Positions 13,509 through 56,302 of a stretch of 56,302 nucleotides of DNA are shown here, in pieces. The stretch lies in the UHGV virus genome UHGV-0090450. One strand, given 5' to 3'. Position 1 is the first letter of the stretch. Each line of letters opens with the position of its first letter. The translations under genes and the position numbers were made by a program. The DNA comes from a virus. The notes below the pieces were generated by a model, which ran no database searches, was not told the DNA's origin, and saw only the letters and a list, made by a program, of their open reading frames with translations.

Positions 13509-13538
13509 AAGCCATCGATGAATCATCGATGGCTTTTT
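13509..13538 (+). terminator. rho-independent terminator (AAGCCATCGATG-AATC-ATCGATGGCTT + TTT)
   Basis: Perfect inverted repeat followed by T-run. Confidence 0.55.
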
Positions 13539-13550
13539 AATTGGAGATTT

Positions 13551-13901
13551 ATGCCCCCACGAACCCCAAAAGCCTGCCGTGTTCGCGGCTGCCGCTCTAC
13601 AACCACGGACCCTTCAGGCTATTGCGAAAGCCACAAAAGCGAAGGTTGGAAGCAATACAAGCCAGGACAATCCCGTCATCAGCGCGGTTATGGTTCGAAA
13701 TGGGATGCTATCCGTGAACGTGTGCTGAAGCGTGACAAAGGCCTGTGTCAGTTATGTCTGCGTGCTGGTGTGGTGCGTGAGGCGAAAACCGTTGACCACA
13801 TCATCCCTAAAGCGCATGGCGGCACAGATGCCGACAGTAATCTGCAGAGCCTGTGCTGGCCGTGTCATAAGGCGAAGACGGCCCGTGAACGGCTGAAGTG
13901 A
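13551..13901 (+). CDS. HNH endonuclease (terminase-associated)
   Basis: Cys-rich N-terminus, DHIIPKAHGGTD...N...LCWPCH; ATG at 13551 with GGAG RBS; track ORF begins at 13518. Confidence 0.85.
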   Translation: MPPRTPKACRVRGCRSTTTDPSGYCESHKSEGWKQYKPGQSRHQRGYGSKWDAIRERVLKRDKGLCQLCLRAGVVREAKTVDHIIPKAHGGTDADSNLQSLCWPCHKAKTARERLK

Positions 13902-14017
13902 GAACCAGTTCCCACTGCCAGAGGGGAGGGGCGGGTCAAATCCCTGTGACCTGACGTCTTCCGGACTGCCCGCCCCATCGTTTTTTTATACCCGCGAAAA
14001 ATGAAATTTAACCAGGA
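13902..14017. other. possible cos/packaging region (inverted repeat GGGGCGGG...CCCGCCCC)
   Basis: GC-rich inverted repeat between HNH and TerS genes. Confidence 0.3.
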
Positions 14018-14521
14018 GTGCCGCATATGGCTGGAACGACGGGGCGTTCCGGGCGTCGCCCCAAGCCAACGGCGCGCAAGGCGCTGGCCGGAAATCCCGG
14101 CAAGCGAGCCCTGAACAAAGATGAACCTGTTTTTACGCCCATCAAAGGTGTTGAGCCACCGGAGTGGTTCGCTGAAGAAGATCTCCCTCTCGCTACGATC
14201 ATGTGGCAACTGACAACTAAAGAACTCTGCGGTCAGGGCCTGCTGTGCGTGACTGACCTTGCGGTGCTTGAGCGGTGGTGCGTGGCCTACGAGTTCTGGC
14301 GACGTGCCGTGAAAAATATTGCCAGACAGGGCAACACCATCACCGGTGCAATGGGCGGTATGGTCAAAAATCCGGAGCTGACTGCCAAAAAAGAACAGGA
14401 GTCCGAGATGAGCAGTACGGGGGCAATGCTCGGACTCGACCCCAGCAGCCGCCAGCGTCTGATTGGCCTGGCGGGGAAGAAGAAAGCCACTAACCCGTTT
14501 CTGAAAATCATCGAATCATGA
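14018..14521 (+). CDS. terminase small subunit (P27 family)
   Basis: Basic N-terminus, position upstream of large terminase, family-typical sequence. Confidence 0.85.
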
Positions 14522-20997: not shown

Positions 20998-21554
20998 AAC
21001 TGACGCCTGTTATTGCTGCACTGCGTGCCCGTTGTCCGTATTTTGAAAACCGGGTTGCAGGCGCGGCCCAGTTCAAAAATCTGCCGGAGGTCGGAAAGCT
21101 GAAACTCCCGGCGGCATATGTTGTACCGGGTGATGATTCTCCGGGAGAAAACAAAAGCCAGACCGACTACTGGCAGGAGCTGAAAGAGGGTTTCTCCGTG
21201 GTTGTCATACTGAGTAACGGGCGTGATGAGCGCGGTCAGTTTGCCTCGTATGATGTGGTGGACGATGTCCGGCAGATGCTCTTTAAGGCTCTGCTGGGCT
21301 GGAACCCGGAGGCGTGCGGTAACCCGATTACCTATGACGGCGGCACGCTGCTGGATCTGAATCGTCATGAGCTGATTTATCAGTTCGATTTTTCGGTCAT
21401 CAGCGAGCTGACTGAAGACGATACCCGCCAGCAGGATGATCTGAACAGTCTGGATGAACTGCAAACGCTGGCGATTGATGTTGATTATCTCGAGCCCGGT
21501 AACGGGCCTGACGGCGATATCGAACATCACACCGAAATAACCCTTCCTTCCTGA
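20994..21554 (+). CDS. neck/tail terminator-like protein
   Basis: Position before sheath module. Confidence 0.55.
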   Translation: MKLTPVIAALRARCPYFENRVAGAAQFKNLPEVGKLKLPAAYVVPGDDSPGENKSQTDYWQELKEGFSVVVILSNGRDERGQFASYDVVDDVRQMLFKALLGWNPEACGNPITYDGGTLLDLNRHELIYQFDFSVISELTEDDTRQQDDLNSLDELQTLAIDVDYLEPGNGPDGDIEHHTEITLPS

Positions 21555-40157: not shown

Positions 40158-40203
40158 ATTCGTAATGCGAAGGTCGTAGGTTCGACTCCTATTATCGGCA
40201 CCA
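40158..40203 (+). other. 3' fragment of tRNA-Thr (anticodon loop to CCA), att core
   Basis: ATTCGTAATGCGAAGGTCGTAGGTTCGACTCCTATTATCGGCACCA matches the 3' 46 nt of E. coli tRNA-Thr(CGU) as recalled; no matching 5' acceptor strand upstream. Confidence 0.7.
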
Positions 40204-40369: not shown

Positions 40370-41584
40370 GTGAAACTCAATGCCCGTCAAATAGACACTG
40401 CCAAGCCAAAAGAGAAGGCTTACAAGCTGGCTGATGGTGGTGGTCTGTATCTCTTGGTAAAACCTAGTGGAGGAAAATATTGGCGCTTCAAGTATCGTGT
40501 AGCTGGTAAAGAGAAGCTGTTAGCACTAGGTGTGTATCCTGAAGTTACCTTGGCTGATGCTCGTGCAAAACGTGAAGAAGCTAAAAGGGGTATCGCTGGG
40601 GGTATCGATCCGATGGAAGCGAAACGAGAGGAAAAGATTGCCCGGGAAACGCAGTTAAACAACACCTTCAAAGATATTGCCCTTGAGTGGCACAGCAGCA
40701 AATTAAAAAAATGGTCTGCTGGTTATGCTTCAGACATCCTCGAAGCCTTCAACAAAGATGTGTTCCCTTACATTGGCAAAAAACCAATCGCCGAAATCAA
40801 ACCACTTGAACTGCTGAATGTGCTGCGGCGCATCGAGGGGCGCGGTGCTACCGAAAAAGCCAAAAAAGTGAGGCAGCGATGTGGGGAAGTTTTCCGCTAT
40901 GCAATTGTCACTGGACGTGCTGAGTATAACCCTGCACCGGATCTCACCAGCGCGATGCAAGGTCATGAATCTAATCATTATCCTTTCCTCACAGCCAAAG
41001 AATTACCTGATTTTTTCAAGGCATTGTCCAGTTACTCAGGAAGTGCATTGGTTGTTATGGCGGCTCGTTTACTGATTATCACCGGTTTGCGGACTGGCGA
41101 ACTGCGCGGTGCATTATGGGATGAAATCGATCTCAACAAGGCTATCTGGGAGATACCTGCTTCACGGATGAAAATGCGTCGCCCTCATGTAGTGCCTTTG
41201 TCTGAGCAGGCTCTTTCGCTTATTGGGCAGATTAAAGAACTAACTGGCAATTATCCGCTTATGTTTCCCGGCCGTAATGATCCAAGGAAAACAATGAGCG
41301 AGGCTAGCATAAACCAAGTATTTAAACGCATCGGCTATAACGGAAAGGTTACTGGTCATGGCTTCCGGCACACTATGAGCACCATTTTGCATGAGCAGGG
41401 CTATAACACCGCGTGGATAGAGACACAGCTTGCGCACGTCGATAAAAACTCAATTCGTGGCACATACAACCATGCGCAATATCTGGATGGGCGGCGGGAA
41501 ATGCTTCAGTGGTACGCTGATTATATGGATTCGCTCGAGCATGGCGGAAATGTGGTGCATGGTGAGTTCGGAAAATGCGGGTGA
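40370..41584 (+). CDS. int: tyrosine integrase (P4 type, N-terminal arm-binding domain)
   Basis: N-terminus KLADGGGLYLLVKPSGGKYWRFKYR, C-terminal catalytic region (HGFRHT, LAH...RGTYNH); GTG start after GGAGG; adjacent to tRNA fragment. Confidence 0.9.
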   Translation: MKLNARQIDTAKPKEKAYKLADGGGLYLLVKPSGGKYWRFKYRVAGKEKLLALGVYPEVTLADARAKREEAKRGIAGGIDPMEAKREEKIARETQLNNTFKDIALEWHSSKLKKWSAGYASDILEAFNKDVFPYIGKKPIAEIKPLELLNVLRRIEGRGATEKAKKVRQRCGEVFRYAIVTGRAEYNPAPDLTSAMQGHESNHYPFLTAKELPDFFKALSSYSGSALVVMAARLLIITGLRTGELRGALWDEIDLNKAIWEIPASRMKMRRPHVVPLSEQALSLIGQIKELTGNYPLMFPGRNDPRKTMSEASINQVFKRIGYNGKVTGHGFRHTMSTILHEQGYNTAWIETQLAHVDKNSIRGTYNHAQYLDGRREMLQWYADYMDSLEHGGNVVHGEFGKCG

Positions 41585-43012: not shown

Positions 43013-43420
43013 ATGAAATTTCCAAAAACGCCCGTACAGGGGCGGGGCTTCGTTCGGCCTGAAAACCAGAATCTGCAAAATTTCGGCGAAATTATCCCGA
43101 TTATTTCCGGCGTTATTGGCGGGAGTGAAACCACTATTGTTAGCGCCAGAGCGTTATATAAGGCGTTAGGTGTAGGGCGCGTTTTCCGTTCGTGGATCAA
43201 GGGGCGCATTGAAGAATACGGGTTCACGGAAGGCGTGGATTATGAGGTTGTTGAATATTTGAGCCGACCCGATCCGGTGAGCGCAAAATCTCGCCAGCAA
43301 ACCGCTCTTGAGTACATCATCACAGTGAACATGGCGAAAGAACTGGCGATGGTCGAACGTACCGAACAGGGCCGCGCCGTTCGCCAGTACTTTATCAAAT
43401 GCGAGGAGGAGCTACATTAA
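43013..43420 (+). CDS. antirepressor-like protein (ORF6N/AntA-type domain)
   Basis: FRSWIKGRIEEYGFTEGVDY and ITVNMAKELAMVERTEQGRAVRQYFIKCEE match ORF6N/AntA pattern. Confidence 0.65.
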   Translation: MKFPKTPVQGRGFVRPENQNLQNFGEIIPIISGVIGGSETTIVSARALYKALGVGRVFRSWIKGRIEEYGFTEGVDYEVVEYLSRPDPVSAKSRQQTALEYIITVNMAKELAMVERTEQGRAVRQYFIKCEEELH

Positions 43421-43424
43421 GCCA

Positions 43425-43742
43425 ATGTGTGCCGCGCTGGAGGCGTACCGGGCTGAACTGGGTAAAAACACACTCCAGCACCACTACACCACGGAAGCGA
43501 ACATGCTGGCGCGTATCGTGCTGGGTGGCATGACTGCAAAACAGTGGGCACTGGCGAACGGCATTACAGGCGAACCACGCGACCACATGAGCACGTTGCA
43601 GCTTGAGCACCTTTCTTACCTTGAGCAGAGCAATATCACGCTGATTGAGTTAGGCCAGGACTACCACCAGCGGAAGGCTGAATTAATTCGTCTTTCGCAG
43701 CGTTGGTTAGCCCGTCGCATGGAGGAAAACAGCCATGTGTAA
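43425..43742 (+). CDS. hypothetical protein (105 aa)
   Basis: ORF immediately downstream of antirepressor-like gene. Confidence 0.4.
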   Translation: MCAALEAYRAELGKNTLQHHYTTEANMLARIVLGGMTAKQWALANGITGEPRDHMSTLQLEHLSYLEQSNITLIELGQDYHQRKAELIRLSQRWLARRMEENSHV

Positions 43743-46271: not shown

Positions 46272-46562
46272 ATGAAAAGGAAAAATTCTGGCTTTACTGC
46301 CAGCGGTCTCTCTCGGCCTGAAATCAGACACGGAGATATTTACCGCGACACCAGACGTGGGGGACGAGTGGTTATTCGTCACGTTACGCCAGGCAATATC
46401 ACCTACCGCCGTGAGGCTTACGAATATGACTGCGTAATGCCGCGCCGTCAGTTTGAGCGTGATTTTATTCTGGTGGAAAACAAACAACAGGCAGTGGCGA
46501 GACGTGCAGCCACGAATATTAAAAAAATCCGGGCAATGTTGGTTGCGGGAGGTAAGAAGTGA
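46272..46562 (+). CDS. hypothetical small basic protein
   Basis: ORF overlapping primase start. Confidence 0.45.
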   Translation: MKRKNSGFTASGLSRPEIRHGDIYRDTRRGGRVVIRHVTPGNITYRREAYEYDCVMPRRQFERDFILVENKQQAVARRAATNIKKIRAMLVAGGKK

Positions 46563-48364
46563 AAAACGCACCGAATTTAAAATATCAGCCGAAGGATAAA
46601 TTCACCGAGGTAATCATTTTTGCCGGGACGGATGCTTACGCCCATGCTCAACACTGGATTGAAAGCGAAGGACGAAAACACGGCGATAACGTGCCTCCTG
46701 TTTACCTGGGGCCAAAGCAACTGGCAGACCTGGCGAATATCCGCATTGTCGACGATGAACGCCGCTTTGCGCGTGTCTATCTCGCGGGGGAGATAGAGCC
46801 AATCCAGATCAATGCTATTGCTGAAAAGCTGGCGCTGGCTGGTGTACAGGACGCGAAATTATACAAAGGTATCACCGACCGGGAGCCGGAAAACTGGCGC
46901 GACTACCTGCAACGGATCCGCGAACAGGCAGAGAGTGGGGAAGTTTCAGCGATGAAATTAGCCACAAAAAATATTGACCTATCCAGGCCAGCACTAAATC
47001 AGATGGGAGCCAGCCAGAGAGGGGAAGTGTTACTTGAATATTATGGAAGAGCACTGGCTATAAATGATGATTCTGATGTAGTTCACCATTACAACGGAAT
47101 TGTCTGGGTGCCTGTATCTGATAAGGAACTCCAGCGGTCTATGGCGAAGATTTTTATTGATGCTGGAATCAGTTATTCGCAAAACGCCATTAAATTTGCC
47201 GTAGACACAATGAAATTGAGCCTGCCTGTTATGGGCGGGGCAGACAGGAATCTTATTGGATTCAGTAACGGGGTATTTGATACCCGGACGGGAAATTTTC
47301 GGGAGCATAACAAAAATGACTGGTTGTTAAATGCCAGTGAATTACCGTTCAGCCCACCAGCAGAGGGGGAAACGCTGGCAACACATGCGCCGAATTTCTG
47401 GAAGTGGCTGCGTCGTTCGGTGGCAGATAATGATCGTAAAGCTGATCGCGTACTGGCGGCATTATTCATGGTGCTGGCGAACCGGTACGACTGGCAGTTA
47501 TTCCTTGAGGTAACAGGCCCAGGCGGAAGCGGTAAAAGTGTGATGGCTGAGATTTGTACCATGCTGGCGGGTAAGGCCAACACAGTATCGGCAAGCATGA
47601 AGGCTCTGGAAGACGCAAGGGAACGCGCGTTAGTAGTTGGCTTTTCGCTGATTATCATGCCGGATATGACTCGCTACGCTGGCGATGGTGCAGGAATTAA
47701 GGCAATTACTGGCGGCGACAAGGTGGCAATTGATCCGAAACATAAAGCCCCCTACTCCACACGTATTCCGGCAGTAGTGCTTGCGGTAAACAATAACGCC
47801 ATGTCATTCAGTGACCGAAGCGGGGGGATCTCGCGTCGTAGGGTGATATTTAATTTCTCTGAGGTCGTACCGGAGAACGAACGCGATCCCATGCTGGCGG
47901 AAAAGATAGAAGGCGAACTGGCGGTAGTGATTCGCCATTTGCTAACACGATTTACCGACCAGGACGAAGCTAAAAGACTACTTTATGAGCAGCAAAAATC
48001 AGAAGAAGCGCTGTTGATAAAGCGCGAAGGTGATTCACTGGTGGACTTTTGCGGCTATCTGATGTCGTTGGTTAAATGTGAAGGAATGATGGTGGGCAAT
48101 GCGGAAATAGTGCCATTTAGCCCGAGGCGATACCTGTATCATGCTTATTTAGCCTATATGTCAGCGCATGGCCTGGGAAAACCAGTATCACTGACACGCT
48201 TTGGTACTGATATGCCAGGAGCTATGGCGGAATACGGAAAGGAGTATAAGCGGGCTAAATGCACTAAAGGCCCGGATAAAGGGCGAGTGATAACAAATGT
48301 TCTGTTAGATGATGATGCTGATGGCTGGTTGCCAGCAGCTACAGGGATTAACGACAGAACATAA
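46559..48364 (+). CDS. primase / replication protein (P4 alpha-like)
   Basis: 601 aa; Walker A-like GPGGSGKS in C-terminal half; followed by iteron origin. Confidence 0.85.
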   Translation: MKNAPNLKYQPKDKFTEVIIFAGTDAYAHAQHWIESEGRKHGDNVPPVYLGPKQLADLANIRIVDDERRFARVYLAGEIEPIQINAIAEKLALAGVQDAKLYKGITDREPENWRDYLQRIREQAESGEVSAMKLATKNIDLSRPALNQMGASQRGEVLLEYYGRALAINDDSDVVHHYNGIVWVPVSDKELQRSMAKIFIDAGISYSQNAIKFAVDTMKLSLPVMGGADRNLIGFSNGVFDTRTGNFREHNKNDWLLNASELPFSPPAEGETLATHAPNFWKWLRRSVADNDRKADRVLAALFMVLANRYDWQLFLEVTGPGGSGKSVMAEICTMLAGKANTVSASMKALEDARERALVVGFSLIIMPDMTRYAGDGAGIKAITGGDKVAIDPKHKAPYSTRIPAVVLAVNNNAMSFSDRSGGISRRRVIFNFSEVVPENERDPMLAEKIEGELAVVIRHLLTRFTDQDEAKRLLYEQQKSEEALLIKREGDSLVDFCGYLMSLVKCEGMMVGNAEIVPFSPRRYLYHAYLAYMSAHGLGKPVSLTRFGTDMPGAMAEYGKEYKRAKCTKGPDKGRVITNVLLDDDADGWLPAATGINDRT

Positions 48365-48384
48365 TACGAAATTTATAAGCTGAA

Positions 48385-48730
48385 ACGTAAAGGTAGACGG
48401 TTGGTAGACAGATTCACTTAACCCTCTACCAACCATCTACCAATTAATATTTTGAATTATAAAGATATTTTCAATGTGGTAGAGAGGTAGACAGTTATTT
48501 CTATATTCCTAAACCACGGGGGGTATATAAAAAACAGATAGTTAAGGGGGCATTTTTTAAATTTCTCTTTTAACTGTCTACACTGTCTACCATTTAGTAA
48601 AAATCATTAATTATCAATGTATTAATGCGGTAGACCGTTGGTAGACAGTTTGCAGATTGTTTTTTTGTTATGTGTTAATAACATTAAATAAATCAATCAA
48701 TTATATCGGTAGACAGTTGGTAGACAGTTG
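48385..48730. repeat. iteron array GGTAGAC-N-GTTGGTAGACAG (6 copies, both orientations) with AT-rich spacers; probable satellite origin
   Basis: Copies near 48390, 48420 (inverted), 48475, 48575 (inverted), 48626, 48706. Confidence 0.7.
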
Positions 48731-48735
48731 TAACG

Positions 48736-51505: not shown

Positions 51506-51673
51506 ATGAAAAATCACGGAGTAAAGCCAGTTTTACTTTCCCGGAGGCAGATCGAAGCCCTGCAACGCATCCAGGACGAAGAGCGTCAGAAATCTGTGCT
51601 TGGTGTGGCACCGTCGATTCATGTTATCGCTCGGCAACTGATGGATAAGGCACTTAAAGAGGTGAGACTGTGA
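51506..51673 (+). CDS. hypothetical small protein (55 aa)
   Basis: ATG MKNHGVKP inside track ORF 51350-51673; stop overlaps next start. Confidence 0.35.
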   Translation: MKNHGVKPVLLSRRQIEALQRIQDEERQKSVLGVAPSIHVIARQLMDKALKEVRL

Positions 51674-51942
51674 AATTAAATATCAGAGTGGATAAACGCC
51701 AGCTATGGCAGAAAAAAGAGAACAGCGAGGCATTCAGGGCGTTGCTGGTGGAAAATCTTCAGCATCGGTTCAGTGGAGAGTTGCCTGATGCTCTAGGGAA
51801 GAAACTGGAATCCCTGACGGTGGAAATTGGCGATTATGGCTTTGTTGATGTTGAAAGCACGACTGCCAACACAGAAATCGTAAAACAGGTCGTCAATGGT
51901 GTAATGAAAACCACGCTTAGCCAGCCATCCTGGCGCAACTGA
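51670..51942 (+). CDS. hypothetical protein (90 aa)
   Basis: Coupled to upstream small ORF, followed by hairpin. Confidence 0.45.
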   Translation: MKLNIRVDKRQLWQKKENSEAFRALLVENLQHRFSGELPDALGKKLESLTVEIGDYGFVDVESTTANTEIVKQVVNGVMKTTLSQPSWRN

Positions 51943-52023: not shown

Positions 52024-52569
52024 ATGCATGAGGTGAGCTACATGTTGATGAGTAAAGCCGAATACGCCAAATACAAAGGCGTAAGCCGCCAGACAGTTTA
52101 CGACTGGCTCGAGAAAGGCGAAGTGGTCATGTCCGGTAAAAAAATTGATGTGGAAGCGACAGAGCAGCGGAACAGCCCACCAGCACAGGGGAAAGACACC
52201 ATTTCTGAAATGTGGCCAGAAAGAACGCTGGAAATGACATGGGGCGAGTTCTGGAAAGCAGTTAAGGCCAGAGACGGTAAAATTCCTGCGCCAGTAACGG
52301 ACGAGGGCATACAGCAGCGTGTGCTGTATGCAGCCGGGGAATTAGGCTGGGAAGTGCACTTTCTTGATGATGGTGCTATCTGCCTTGAGGATGATGAAGG
52401 GCAGCATTACTTTGAAAAATACAATTTGCGAGGTAATGCCAGGCTGGCAATTCGTATGCTGCGTTGCGAACTCTGCTATGTTGCAGGTGATTATCCCGAT
52501 GAACCGGAATCATGGAGTGAAGCCGGGTTAAACGCCCTGGCTGAGTGGGAAAAATCAGACCATCAATGA
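52024..52569 (+). CDS. HTH-domain protein (181 aa)
   Basis: N-terminal SKAEYAKYKGVSRQTVYDWLEKG helix-turn-helix-like segment. Confidence 0.5.
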   Translation: MHEVSYMLMSKAEYAKYKGVSRQTVYDWLEKGEVVMSGKKIDVEATEQRNSPPAQGKDTISEMWPERTLEMTWGEFWKAVKARDGKIPAPVTDEGIQQRVLYAAGELGWEVHFLDDGAICLEDDEGQHYFEKYNLRGNARLAIRMLRCELCYVAGDYPDEPESWSEAGLNALAEWEKSDHQ

Positions 52570-52860
52570 CATCAAAAAGTGTCAAGTTGAGCAGCTTGCC
52601 AGCTTGCCACTTTACACTCTGAACGCGAAAAAGTGTCAACCTCGCTGTAAGCCCCGCAATTACTGGGTTTGTGCCAGATTTACCACGTCAAAAAGCCGAA
52701 AAAACCGCGAAAAATGTCAAGTTGCCATGCTTAGAAATGCTAAGGTTTTTCGCGAAAAAGTGTCAAGTGTGTCAACCTGCGATATTAAGATTTATTAAGG
52801 TCTTAAGCCGGAAAGTGTCAACCAGCCCCCTAAGATTTCCTAAGGTGTGATTGGACGTGC
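52570..52860. repeat. repeat cluster: about 5 copies of GAAAAAGTGTCAA(G/C) plus 2 copies of TAAGATTTxxTAAGGT
   Basis: Seen directly downstream of HTH gene. Confidence 0.6.
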
Positions 52861-52942
52861 TGTAACCTTCTTGTCGCAATGTGGATGAATGACTATAGTG
52901 CTGGTAGCTTTGACAGCAGAATCAGATTACTGAAGGAAATGT

Positions 52943-53527
52943 GTGATGAGTTTTTTTAGTCTTTATGGGAAAGAACTATTTTCTTTTTTTATAACGATTT
53001 TAACATGGATACTGAATAACAGATTTAAAAGCAAGGCAAAGTTATCCTATGGTTATCAGCATGGATTTACTTTTCTTCTCAATGAACCCTTACGGAATGC
53101 CAATGGTGAGGTAATATCTAATTCACAGTTGGTGTATACACGATCTATTATTCTTGTTAATGAAGGGCGAGAAAGTGCTACTAATATCTCATTGGTTTTT
53201 AACTATAAGCCAATGCATATTAATTTTTGGCCTGTCCACCATTTTGAAGAAAATATTGAACAGGATGGTCGCTATATTATCAAGTTTGAAAGCCTTGCAC
53301 CTGGTGAGTCTATTCAATGTGAAATATTATCAATAAATAGAGAAGTTCCAAGTATTCTATCGATAAGATCTAAAGAGTGTGTGGCTGAGCCAGTGAATAT
53401 CGTGATGCAAAAATCGATTAGTAATATTGCCCTACGTTGCTATCAATTATTAATACTTCTTGGAACTGGCACATTAACATATTTAATTATCGTTATTCTG
53501 CAATGGTTAGTCACTAAAACGGGATAA
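52943..53527 (+). CDS. membrane protein (N- and C-terminal TM segments), AT-rich cargo
   Basis: Hydrophobic termini; no known domain. Confidence 0.5.
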   Translation: MMSFFSLYGKELFSFFITILTWILNNRFKSKAKLSYGYQHGFTFLLNEPLRNANGEVISNSQLVYTRSIILVNEGRESATNISLVFNYKPMHINFWPVHHFEENIEQDGRYIIKFESLAPGESIQCEILSINREVPSILSIRSKECVAEPVNIVMQKSISNIALRCYQLLILLGTGTLTYLIIVILQWLVTKTG

Positions 53528-53549
53528 TCCATTGTATTGAACTTATTAA

Positions 53550-53759
53550 TTGGATATGAGTGCTGATAGGAAACCTATGACCATCACCGAAGCCGATATG
53601 CTGGAGATGATCCGCAGCATTGCCGGAATCAAACAACCAGCAAGCAAAATTAACAGGTGTTCAGCGCCTGTTTCCGTTGTGCTGCAACAGGAACGCCACC
53701 AGCGGCGGGAAAACGAAAAGGCGTACCAATGGACGAAGCCAAACAAGTTACGGCGTTAA
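53550..53759 (+). CDS. hypothetical small protein
   Basis: ORF only. Confidence 0.3.
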   Translation: MDMSADRKPMTITEADMLEMIRSIAGIKQPASKINRCSAPVSVVLQQERHQRRENEKAYQWTKPNKLRR

Positions 53760-53793
53760 TTAGGGATGCGGGCTGGGATAGCCCGCATTTTGC

Positions 53794-54051
53794 TCACAGC
53801 TTGTTATAAATTTTTCCAGCGAAGTCATGAACCGCCTGAGGAATATCCGACGGCGTACCTAGCATTGTTGGCGCATCGGAAACAAAGAACATGATCGCTT
53901 CTTTGATTTCTTCGAAAGATGGGGTAGGGGTAATGCGCTTGAGATTTGAAACAGCCCGTCGGAACTCCGCCGTATCCATTGGATGCCTGCTAAACCACGT
54001 TGGACTAGAAGCCCAACATTTTACTGCTTCTTTCACCTTAGTGTTCATCAT
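53794..54051 (-). CDS. hypothetical small protein (85 aa)
   Basis: Only minus-strand ORF in this stretch, divergent from 54654 gene. Confidence 0.4.
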   Translation of the reverse strand: MMNTKVKEAVKCWASSPTWFSRHPMDTAEFRRAVSNLKRITPTPSFEEIKEAIMFFVSDAPTMLGTPSDIPQAVHDFAGKIYNKL

Positions 54052-54653
54052 TTTTCCTTTTGCTTATTACCATACAAAGCATGTGGAAAGAGAAGATTAA
54101 CATGGAAAATATGGGGTTGGTGAGCAAATGGTACTGGTAGCCCGTCGACATCTATCAGCATGATGATGTGAGGCCGTATCAGTGGCGGAAACCGAACAGG
54201 CTGCGACGGTGAGCGGGGCGTTATAGTAAGCCAACAGCCAAGCCAAACATTAAGCCTAAGGGTAGGGCTTTTTTGTGGCTGGTGGCGTAATGCCAACATT
54301 GTTACATGATGTTTTGAGGTATTATCTGCATGTTCGTGGTGAGGAACCACCAGAACTGATGAGCTTTTGTTTATGCATGTACTGCATGAAAACTGTCCTA
54401 TAAAGTGGGGGGTAGGTGTGCTGAGGAGAACATTGTGAGCTACGCCAAATTAAATTGTGTCGGGGGTGAACAAGTTTCTTGATAGGTGTCAGTAGGCACC
54501 TATAGTTATAGGCTTCTTCAATTTTGTGTGCACAATATTTTGTATTGATTGGGGATAGGGTTGCACGCAAAATTAAAAAATGTATATTTATTAACGTGTA
54601 TTTGATAATTTTTAAATAAAATATTTCTCTATGTTTATCATAAAAGGTTTTTT

Positions 54654-56252
54654 ATGAGCGTGGCAATAAAAACAATGACACCAGTGTCATATTCTATAAA
54701 AGTTGATGCGATTAAGAAAAGATTGTCATATTTTAGTGATGTTTCTTTTTTGAGAAATTTTTATGAACACTTCCAAAAAGTAAGGGATGTCGAGGTGGGT
54801 ATTGTTTCCAATTTCCCTTGGTGTTGCTATCTGGCAATGAAATGGAAGTTTTGCATGAAGGAAAAAAAGCCTGCAAAAGAAATGAGTAAAAATGATTTTG
54901 TTGATATTATCAACTTAATCTATAACTTGCAACTAGAAGCATCTAATTTAATCGTTGATGATAAAGTTATGCTAAGCCTTAGACGAATGGTGATAAATCA
55001 GTTGCTTTATCAATCAACTGATAAATTTAATGCCAATTCATTAACAAGACAGTATATTTGGTATTGCTTGAATGATGAATCATATTATAAAGATAAGTTT
55101 TTAGAATGTACTGGTTTACATTTGGAAAACTATTACAAAATGGCATGTTATTTTACCGCTATTTCATGTATTAATCCTGATATAGAATCAGAGGTTATTC
55201 CATTTAAACACTTGATAATAAACTTGGTTCCGATATTTGGTCCGGAACAAGTGAAAAGATTTTTGGAATTAACATGCTTAAAAATTGATGGTGTGAGAGA
55301 TTTTATTGCCCCATATAAATTGGATAAAAACATTACCGCTGAGTATTATGAAGATACACCATTCCTCAGTAAACCAATGTTTTTAGATGGCGATGGTGTA
55401 GTGATATTATGCAAAAGAATCATGAAGTCAGGGTTTGTCAACCTAGTTCCAGAATTGTTCAAGCAGGTCTATAAGGAATCTTATAAAGAAAAATTTGGTA
55501 AGACGATGGAACTTTATATTTCTCGCTTTCTTGATAAGTACAATTATAACTTTAAGACTGAAAGGGAGGTTAAGAGGATTTATAGTGATAATGCAATAAA
55601 AAATTGCAAGTCCGTAGATTTTGTTATTTCAGAGGGAGATTCAATAGTTTATATTGACTCGAAGGCAATAGAGCCTGCAAAGTTCGTTAAAACATCTAAT
55701 AATGCTCAGTTGCTAAAGGAAAGGTTGAATAAGAGTTTTATTAAAGGGATTTATCAAGGTCAGGAATGTGCTTTTAACTTAAATAAAATAGAGATGAGAA
55801 AACCATCTTCGAAAGATTCAATGTTAATTGTGGTGCATCGGGATCATCATATATCAAATGCAATGGTTGTGCAGGATTTTATTAACCCTGATTTATCAAC
55901 TGAGTTATCTGAAAAATATCATAGTATCCCCATTAATCTAAAAAGAATTTACTATATAACAATTGATGAGTTCGAATTATTACTTATGATGTGTAAACAG
56001 AAAGAACTATCTATTAATGAGTTTATTGATATGTGTGTGGAAAAAGATTCATTCCCTCATACTCAGAAGTCTAATCTAAGCATGCACATATATGAATTTG
56101 CACCAGAGGGTATTGATGATGATCAATTGATTGTAAAAGGAAGAGACTTACTGATTGATGATGTTATTGAAAATATGAAAGAGAGTGCATCAAAATGGTC
56201 TGGGAAAGTTGATATGTATCTTAAAATAAAAGATTATATTTTTAATTGGTAA
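54654..56252 (+). CDS. large AT-rich orphan protein (532 aa), possible PD-(D/E)xK-like motif
   Basis: Long clean ORF at about 30 percent GC; segment SVDFVISEGDSIVYIDSKAIE fits D...(D/E)xK pattern. Confidence 0.6.
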   Translation: MSVAIKTMTPVSYSIKVDAIKKRLSYFSDVSFLRNFYEHFQKVRDVEVGIVSNFPWCCYLAMKWKFCMKEKKPAKEMSKNDFVDIINLIYNLQLEASNLIVDDKVMLSLRRMVINQLLYQSTDKFNANSLTRQYIWYCLNDESYYKDKFLECTGLHLENYYKMACYFTAISCINPDIESEVIPFKHLIINLVPIFGPEQVKRFLELTCLKIDGVRDFIAPYKLDKNITAEYYEDTPFLSKPMFLDGDGVVILCKRIMKSGFVNLVPELFKQVYKESYKEKFGKTMELYISRFLDKYNYNFKTEREVKRIYSDNAIKNCKSVDFVISEGDSIVYIDSKAIEPAKFVKTSNNAQLLKERLNKSFIKGIYQGQECAFNLNKIEMRKPSSKDSMLIVVHRDHHISNAMVVQDFINPDLSTELSEKYHSIPINLKRIYYITIDEFELLLMMCKQKELSINEFIDMCVEKDSFPHTQKSNLSMHIYEFAPEGIDDDQLIVKGRDLLIDDVIENMKESASKWSGKVDMYLKIKDYIFNW

Positions 56253-56256
56253 TTAA

Positions 56257-56284
56257 GCAAGGGTGTTATTATCAACACCCTTGC
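56257..56284 (+). terminator. hairpin GCAAGGGTGTT-ATTATC-AACACCCTTGC after the 532-aa gene
   Basis: Perfect 11-bp stem; no strong T-run. Confidence 0.4.
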
Positions 56285-56302
56285 TCATAGTCTTACAATA
56301 TT

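Follow-up and report, generated by a model that had tools for sequence, protein, structure and literature searches.

In phage satellites of enterobacteria, a conserved non-coding array of repeated boxes accompanies the gene of one helix-turn-helix (HTH) protein family. The array was found in the window (the whole stretch of DNA analyzed, 56,302 bp), where it covers ∼280 bp (52570-52848 of the stretch 52570-52860), directly 3' of the gene for the 175-aa protein HTH175 (52042..52569, plus strand). It consists of two kinds of repeated boxes, A and B, and a unique segment, C. The repeats are conserved and strictly linked to the protein family, the N-terminal domain of the protein has a winged-helix fold, and gene and array stand in a position equivalent to that of cos1-rppA-cos2 in the satellite EcCICFT073. 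Judged from these sequence features, the array is very probably the cognate binding array for HTH175, a cis-acting assembly site; the two may together serve in packaging.

Organization of the repeat array

Box A has the 12-13-bp consensus rAAAAGTGTCAAsy and occurs six times in direct orientation, once as a decayed inverted copy and once as a GTGTAAA variant. The first direct copy, A1 (AAAAAGTGTCAAG, 52574-52586), begins 5 nt past the HTH175 stop codon. It is followed on the minus strand by the decayed inverted box A2 (CTTGCCACTTT, 52603-52613; GTTGACACTTT in most relatives) and by the overlapping GTGTAAA variant, box A' (AGTGTAAAG, 52610-52618), the two together spanning 52603..52618. In most loci A1 and A2 form an inverted pair. 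All further elements lie on the plus strand. Box A3 (CGCGAAAAAGTGTCAACC, 52624-52641), invariant in 34 E. coli-type arrays, closes the left group of A boxes, and box C (GCTGTAAGCCCCGCAATTACTGGGTTTGTGCCAGATTTACCACG, 52645..52687) is a unique conserved segment between the left and right groups. The right group is made of three composite units. The first (52706..52745) joins A4 (CGCGAAAAATGTCAAG, 52706-52721, one base short) to B1 (CTTAGAAATGCTAAGG, 52730-52745) across 8 nt, and an A-plus-B unit of this kind is also seen in loci L014, L022, L025, L026 and L083. The second (52751..52807) contains A5 (CGCGAAAAAGTGTCAAG, 52751-52767), the next copy GTGTGTCAACC (52767-52777), which overlaps A5, and then B2 (TTAAGATTTATTAAGGTCTTAAG, 52785-52807). 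In the third (52810..52848), A6 (GGAAAGTGTCAACC, 52810-52823) is followed by B3 (CTAAGATTTCCTAAGG, 52830-52845), and the conserved backbone ends with this unit. Box B follows the pattern YTNAG-N5-YTNAG around a short A/T tract, and each of its three copies lies 7-8 nt 3' of a box A. The direct A boxes are spaced by 54, 81, 46, 9 and 46 bp and are not helically phased. Homology to many relatives stops at ∼52848 (five matches end at query base 949), and this edge of the array is the start of variable AT-rich cargo.

The clustering of the boxes is not random. Counting either strand, all five occurrences of GTGTCAA in the window fall inside the 291-bp stretch, as do 6 of the 19 occurrences of TGTCAA (0.07 expected; Poisson P ~1e-10) and six of the eight sites that match AAGTGTCAA with at most one mismatch. 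The repeat cluster that the first-pass annotation had placed at 52570-52860 is thus real, and the five GTGTCAA copies listed there stand; two copies of box B had been listed where we find three, and the inverted A2 and the minus-strand GTGTAAA variant had been missed. Open reading frames of 59-64 aa that run across the stretch are disrupted by 10-16-bp indels in close relatives, in which the boxes are invariant. We therefore regard the stretch as non-coding, as had been proposed. No Rfam family matches the array, and a structured RNA was rejected as its identity for this reason.

Linkage of the array to the HTH175 family

Of 5,426 complete E. coli genomes, 167 carry the module of gene and array, which also extends to about ten other genera of enterobacteria. 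Across 34 E. coli-type arrays box A is invariant and the spacers vary. Among one-per-species genomes, every one of the 15 loci with a full-length HTH175 homologue (38-96% identity) carries a box A cluster, and such clusters occur nowhere else within those 16-kb loci. In nearly every homologous locus a box A copy lies 8-57 nt from the stop codon, and the 13-mer AAAAGTGTCAACC is found 3' of homologues whose protein identity is as low as 38-57%, in Rouxiella, Raoultella, Buttiauxella, Pantoea, Pseudocitrobacter, Lelliottia, Enterobacter and Escherichia sp. Two Pantoea loci (L006 and L007) have the cluster in its GTGTAAA form. The core of box C, CCGCnnTTACTGGnTTTG, recurs in the Klebsiella/Raoultella-type, Pantoea and L043 arrays, and a variant, CGCCAGTACTGGCTTTCG, in the Serratia array. 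The first-pass annotation had held that a lack of conservation in related elements would speak against a function; the repeats are conserved across genera. A literature search with the box sequence returned only primers, and the array-protein module was not found in the literature searched.

Gene and array are retained together even where they have been pulled apart: insertions of 1.5-3.6 kb lie between the two in L009, L012 and L020, and both are kept. Locus L021 is without a box cluster and encodes the N-terminal HTH only; L020, its cluster aside, is grouped with L021 as an N-terminal-HTH-only locus. A second protein lineage, HTH209 (seven loci; recognition helix MSRQALYSW), has the array just upstream of its gene. 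When IMG/VR was searched with the inverted box pair alone as the query pattern, 67 loci were returned: 48 with an HTH175 gene, 8 of the HTH209 lineage, and 11 that are either isolated palindromes due to chance or unrelated contigs of low GC content. EcCIMP1, a satellite that shares the backbone and from which HTH175 is absent, has not one box A. The array accompanies three different primase types, and persists though the downstream cargo varies and DNA has been inserted on either side. From the co-occurrence with HTH175 or HTH209 across primase types and the absence from EcCIMP1, it follows that the constant partner of the array is this HTH family. Box A is most likely bound by the winged-helix N-terminal domain of HTH175. 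The first-pass annotation had offered an operator array, a packaging site and a second origin as possible roles; what these have in common, a cis site tied to the HTH protein, is strongly supported by the co-occurrence, and the second origin is disfavoured on the evidence given below.

Two contigs were observed in addition. A low-GC viral contig (L035, 3900-4400) has nine GTGTCAA/GTGTAAA boxes between an exonuclease-like and a glucosaminidase-like gene, and no matching HTH was found in its available DNA. In a 42-kb contig of the HTH209 lineage (L050, 82-9296), the element adjoins myovirus tail genes (sheath, tube, tape measure and baseplate hub), and this satellite may lie within a prophage or next to one.

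A rival reading is an operator or insulator array. On this reading HTH175 is a transcription factor, and the array controls the small gene orf69 that follows it, read-through into the cargo or, in the lineage with the upstream array, the gene itself. The HTH_17/MerR-type fold of the N-terminal domain, common in regulators, fits them as well as it fits small terminases (TerS). In L042 box B3 abuts the start codon of orf69 and could overlap its ribosome-binding site, and the HTH209 gene has its array immediately on the 5' side. The opposite strand of box A contains TTGACA, which one weak promoter-like match uses. However, promoter-like sites are no commoner than in shuffled sequences, no -10 element follows the boxes, and box A is absent from all other promoters of the island. 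With six to eight sites and a further two conserved elements, the 280-bp array is oversized for an operator, and it is kept when neighbouring genes change. We consider a regulatory role unlikely. A promoter cluster built on TTGACA was rejected, being without -10 elements and without excess over shuffles.

The satellite island and its replication origin

By its architecture, the DNA from 40158 to the end of the window is a PICI-type satellite integrated at tRNA-Thr. Its left end is formed by a partial tRNA-Thr att core (40158-40203, plus strand; the 3' 46 nt of tRNA-Thr), beside which lies the gene for a P4-type integrase (40370-41584, plus strand). The segment 40158-56302 is 99.96% identical to an island beside tRNA-Thr in E. 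coli 537-20, where the island abuts the intact tRNA gene; it measures at least 16.1 kb in the window and ∼16.8 kb in that strain. The integrase is followed by an HTH gene in the AlpA position, a frameshifted antirepressor, an Icd-like gene, DUF4222 and a D5_N/DUF5906 primase-helicase (46559-48364, plus strand), and then by an iteron origin, ProQ/FinO, PerC, a lipoprotein and small genes, HTH175, the array and the cargo. The features by which Gram-negative PICIs are recognized are thus present: an integrase at the att end, an AlpA-type gene, primase and origin in one direction, and a size of ∼10-20 kb. No virion structural or lysis families were found in the island. The antA/antB antirepressor (43013-43742) is split into two ORFs and is annotated as frameshifted in the identical 537-20 island. 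Two small genes of the same operon, orf55 and orf90 (51506..51942, plus strand), lie upstream of HTH175; orf55 is co-conserved with the module, yet is also found in EcCIMP1, which lacks the array.

The cargo after the array has a GC content of 35.6%. In this window a gene for a 194-aa protein (52943-53527) stands between the array and orf69 (53577..53759, plus strand), a small gene of the backbone; in relatives it comes directly after the array, which in L042 abuts its start codon. The cargo slot (52861-56302, and its counterparts in L002, L003, L020 and L025) holds differing AT-rich cargo by strain, sometimes between gene and array: 194-aa and 532-aa proteins here, and DUF4747 genes, an Abi_2 gene and an SMC-like ATPase set elsewhere. 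In this it resembles a defence-gene hotspot. A 23-bp direct repeat, ATTGGGGGTACTTTTGGGGGTAT, is located in L001 at 4418 (upstream of int) and at 21043 (the far right end, strain 537-20); it is probably a remnant of the left arm of a neighbouring island, and the right boundary probably lies ∼0.6 kb past the end of the window.

The array marks the exact border of the variable cargo, as would a recombination site, whether a set of attP arm sites or a docking site for cargo exchange. Its distances from the ends, 12.4 kb from attL and 0.85-4 kb from attR in L001, L017 and L020, the loci in which attR was located, are nevertheless too great for arms; a separate AlpA-type gene stands beside int, cargo also inserts between gene and array, and no recombinase is linked to the cargo. 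We judge this role very unlikely, and rejected attP arms, whose binding sites should lie no more than a few hundred bp away from the att core. The ProQ/FinO-family protein of the island, which has no relaxase, raises the further idea that the array mimics an origin of transfer, through which a conjugative plasmid could mobilise the island. Regions of this kind (oriT) typically carry inverted repeats together with accessory-protein repeats. Against this, no match was found in 72,556 plasmids, no nic motif is recognisable, ProQ/FinO is missing in many array-bearing relatives, and the backbone is that of a phage satellite. A plasmid or oriT origin was rejected for lack of a plasmid match, and a mimic of this kind appears highly improbable.

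The primase-helicase gene and the origin together form a replication module (46559..48735). The origin (48370-48735, plus strand), which is the first repeat cluster of the first-pass annotation, is AT-rich and consists of GGTAGAC(N)GTTGGTAGACAG iterons, a motif that differs from those of the array; it reaches 85% AT and has two IHF consensus sites. The array has itself an iteron-like appearance, and might be an auxiliary replication site, either a second origin or a region like crr of P4, with HTH175 as an origin-binding protein that captures replication proteins of helper or host. A precedent is P4, a satellite whose primase is of a related class and which requires a second cis region, crr, bound by its primase-helicase. 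Like P4 with its ori and crr, the island has two separate repeat clusters, and the boxes resemble iterons; unlike in P4, the two clusters have different motifs, and the second is independent of primase type and without an unwinding element. A parallel is also seen in a low-GC metagenome contig (L047, 980-3387; also L033) that encodes a DUF6371 primase and a DUF3987 helicase ending in the HTH VTRSTLYNW, close to the VSRQTVYDW of HTH175: in L047, which is unrelated to the island, AAAAGTGTCAAA boxes flank an AT-rich stretch directly after the helicase, the position of a classical origin. These resemblances are outweighed in our assessment. The maximum AT content per 40 bp is 65% in the array vs 85% at the primase-linked origin, and the array contains no DnaA or IHF consensus. 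An iteron origin would combine an AT-rich element, host-factor sites and an adjacent initiator gene, a combination that the array does not show. Helicase, primase and initiator domains are all absent from HTH175. The primase is already followed by a complete canonical origin, and the array occurs independently of the primase type. We regard a part in replication as quite unlikely.

The cos1-rppA-cos2 slot and a possible role in packaging

The backbone of the island is syntenic with that of EcCICFT073, the reference Gram-negative PICI (alpA, YlcI, Icd-like, DUF4222, primase, PerC). Identity amounts to 37% for the HTH in the alpA position, 52% for DUF4222, 43% for the primase and 52% for PerC, in the same order. 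At the right end, EcCICFT073 has cos1 (GGGCGGCGACCT), rppA (c1503), an inverted cos2 and orf93, followed by the chromosome (PMC6739421). The backbone of the present family ends with HTH175, the array and orf69, the homologue of orf93 (BLASTP E 6e-7). HTH175 and the array therefore occupy the slot of cos1-rppA-cos2, in the same place ahead of the shared orf69/orf93. Packaging and interference genes of PICIs lie in this region, ahead of the accessory genes (PMC6092414, PMC6739421). Helper-phage-dependent excision, replication and transfer have been shown for EcCICFT073 (PMC6092414) and for EcCIMP1 (PMC11773190), the latter, a PICI at tRNA-Thr, being mobilised by Kapi1, a P22-like phage (PMC11773190). 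EcCIMP1 is like the present island in its att site, a 97% identical integrase, ant, PerC and orf55; it differs in having P22-type ejection-protein genes after the primase, and neither HTH175 nor the boxes. Neither a box nor anything similar was found in terS of Kapi1.

It is mainly for this slot equivalence that we rank packaging first. Of the three functions it fits best, because the module replaces cos1-rppA-cos2 and the best matches of the HTH are Nu1-type small terminases. With cos1-RppA the module shares its position between PerC/accessory genes and orf93/orf69, and the combination of a satellite-specific winged-helix protein of TerS type with a cis site that differs from that of the helper. 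Unlike cos1-RppA, it has no lambda cosN or cosQ, the C-terminal domain of the protein is an orphan, the site is a multi-box array of 280 bp vs a single proposed R3-like element (PMC9026076), and in the HTH175 lineage the array lies downstream of the gene.

The first-pass annotation was right in naming an HTH protein upstream of the array, which is a winged-helix protein; its start codon is more likely at 52042 (MLMSKAEY; 175 aa), as in homologues and RefSeq, than at 52024. The AlphaFold model of HTH175 (pLDDT 88) comprises a winged helix-turn-helix at residues 1-44, which contains the recognition helix VSRQTVYDW, a disordered linker and an alpha/beta C-terminal domain. The best family match is to the small terminases of PHROG_57 (Nu1-type; 2e-6), as it is for HTH209 (7e-7). 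Pfam gives only a sub-threshold HTH_17 match and no terminase family. The fold of the N-terminal domain, which is the DNA-binding winged helix expected of a TerS, matches the DNA-binding domains of TerS proteins, lambda Nu1 and RppC, and equally excisionases. An oligomerisation domain and a TerL-binding tail homologous to those of phage TerS were not found, the C-terminal domain being an orphan: it has no relatives outside its own family among 1.8e9 representatives, three long matches to it were set aside as they have no coherent Pfam domains, and Foldseek of HTH175 against viral structures recovered HTH matches only and none for this domain. It is unlike TerS oligomerisation domains and the Rpp dimerisation domain. 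A tblastn search with HTH175 found no match in 50,697 phage genomes. Comparison with RppC (6HLK/6HN7) in the PDB gave no sequence match with either a single sequence or a profile, and hhalign with RppA aligned only 29 HTH residues (probability 26%). At the level of sequence, HTH175 is a homologue of neither TerS nor Rpp over its length. Its family is unnamed and confined to Enterobacterales, with near-invariant N-terminal 42 residues.

We searched for known packaging sites. The lambda-type cos GGGCGGCGACCT was not found in the island at up to two mismatches, and no lambda-type cosN lies beside the array in any array-bearing locus, in a search that recovered both cos sites of the control EcCICFT073; with cosQ-cosN absent, a lambda-type cos was rejected as the identity of the array. 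When the array and a concatenate of nine diverse arrays were compared with 50,697 phage genomes, only chance-level matches were obtained. The comparison with helper-phage packaging sequences suggested by the first-pass annotation thus gave no significant match, and mimicry of a helper pac or cos site was rejected. If the array acts in packaging, its specificity must therefore come from a satellite protein, as with Rpp and the TerS of SaPI. No terminal repeats were found on whole viral-collection contigs.

The array has features in common with several known sites. As in lambda cosB, where the R sites are bound by gpNu1, repeated direct and inverted sites lie beside a winged-helix gene, the best family match of the protein is to the Nu1-type PHROG_57, and bendable A/T tracts are found between the sites. 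Unlike lambda cosB, the array has no adjacent nicking site, no IHF consensus and no similarity in site sequence, and HTH175 is without the oligomerisation and TerL-binding regions of Nu1. In the pac sites of P1 and SPP1 (pacL/pacC/pacR), repeats flank a unique central segment; the array is likewise built of repeats around a unique segment, box C. Box B2 (TTAAGATTTATTAAGGTC) resembles P22 pac (GAAGATTTATCTGAAGTC; sequence from PMC11447400 and PMC11226127). Read by eye against the published P22 pseudo-pac pattern, AA[GC][AG][TC][AT][AT][ATC][TC][TC]T[GT][ACG][ACG][ACG]TC (PMC11226127), both AAGATTTATTAAGGTC and AAGATTTCCTAAGGTG fail at positions 11-12. The P22 pac identity of box B was rejected on this account, and the resemblance is a lead only.

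Two local similarities to phage DNA were recorded. A 28-nt stretch at box B1 (52727-52754; L004 4549-4576) is identical at 26 of 28 positions to terS of vB_EcoS-606R9 and its relatives, E. coli phages with a P22-type coat (E = 0.1). The stretch encodes SRMLRNARVFR there, and close to its 5' end this terS contains a series of A-rich TGCGCA repeats. We treat this match as a lead only. The other similarity involves the tandem prophage beside the satellite at tRNA-Thr (window 1-40157; the junction is the partial tRNA 40158-40203). This myovirus-type prophage encodes a CI-like repressor, lysis genes, an HNH protein (13518-13901), a Terminase_4 TerS (14018-14521), TerL, portal, an HK97-type capsid, a tail sheath, an acyltransferase and an AAA_13 ATPase, and is a candidate helper; in strain 537-20 the island adjoins the tRNA and is not accompanied by this prophage. 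The 5' extension of box A, CGCGAAAAA, occurs five times in the window, four times in the array and the fifth time in the HNH-terS spacer of the prophage, where its cos site should lie. A 12-mer, CCGCGAAAAATG, is common to 13992-14003 and 52705-52716. No wider similarity was found, and the shared 12-mer may be due to chance. A copy of the cos of the neighbouring prophage was rejected as the identity of the array, only the 12-mer being shared.

The array is probably a conserved cis-acting site of nucleoprotein assembly (52570-52848). The inverted pair of A boxes at the stop codon, box C, and two to four units of a box A, 7-8 nt and a box B have the layout known from lambda cosB, P1 pac and SPP1 pac, sites at which DNA is wrapped or bent by a protein oligomer. 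After induction of the helper, excision and replication, HTH175 would mark the satellite DNA at the array and recruit the helper terminase, either directly or via the helper small terminase. The satellite DNA would then be cut nearby and packaged, the same job that cos1 and RppA perform in EcCICFT073. In this tentative sense we infer that HTH175 and the array are the packaging-recognition module of the satellite, a reading we lean towards and hold to be possible, short of probable. More doubtful is the broader claim that HTH175 and the box A/B/C array constitute a previously undescribed packaging-redirection module of enterobacterial PICIs, in which a protein confined to satellites, TerS-like in its DNA-binding head and orphan in its tail, would pass satellite DNA marked at several boxes to the terminases of non-lambda helpers, and, as part of the same claim, that this module would replace cos-Rpp in many 'type C' PICIs. 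If this claim is true, the presence of different box B variants in a single array could enable a satellite to exploit several types of helper.

Many enterobacterial islands with a PICI backbone have no recognisable packaging genes and have been scored as doubtful or defective satellites (PMC11773190). The module is a concrete candidate for what marks such islands out for transfer. The array lies at the edge of a cargo slot with defence-type genes (e.g. Abi_2), and is in this way linked to their spread. Even if its function is not packaging, the module still represents a new and clean case of a DNA-binding protein family paired with its site.
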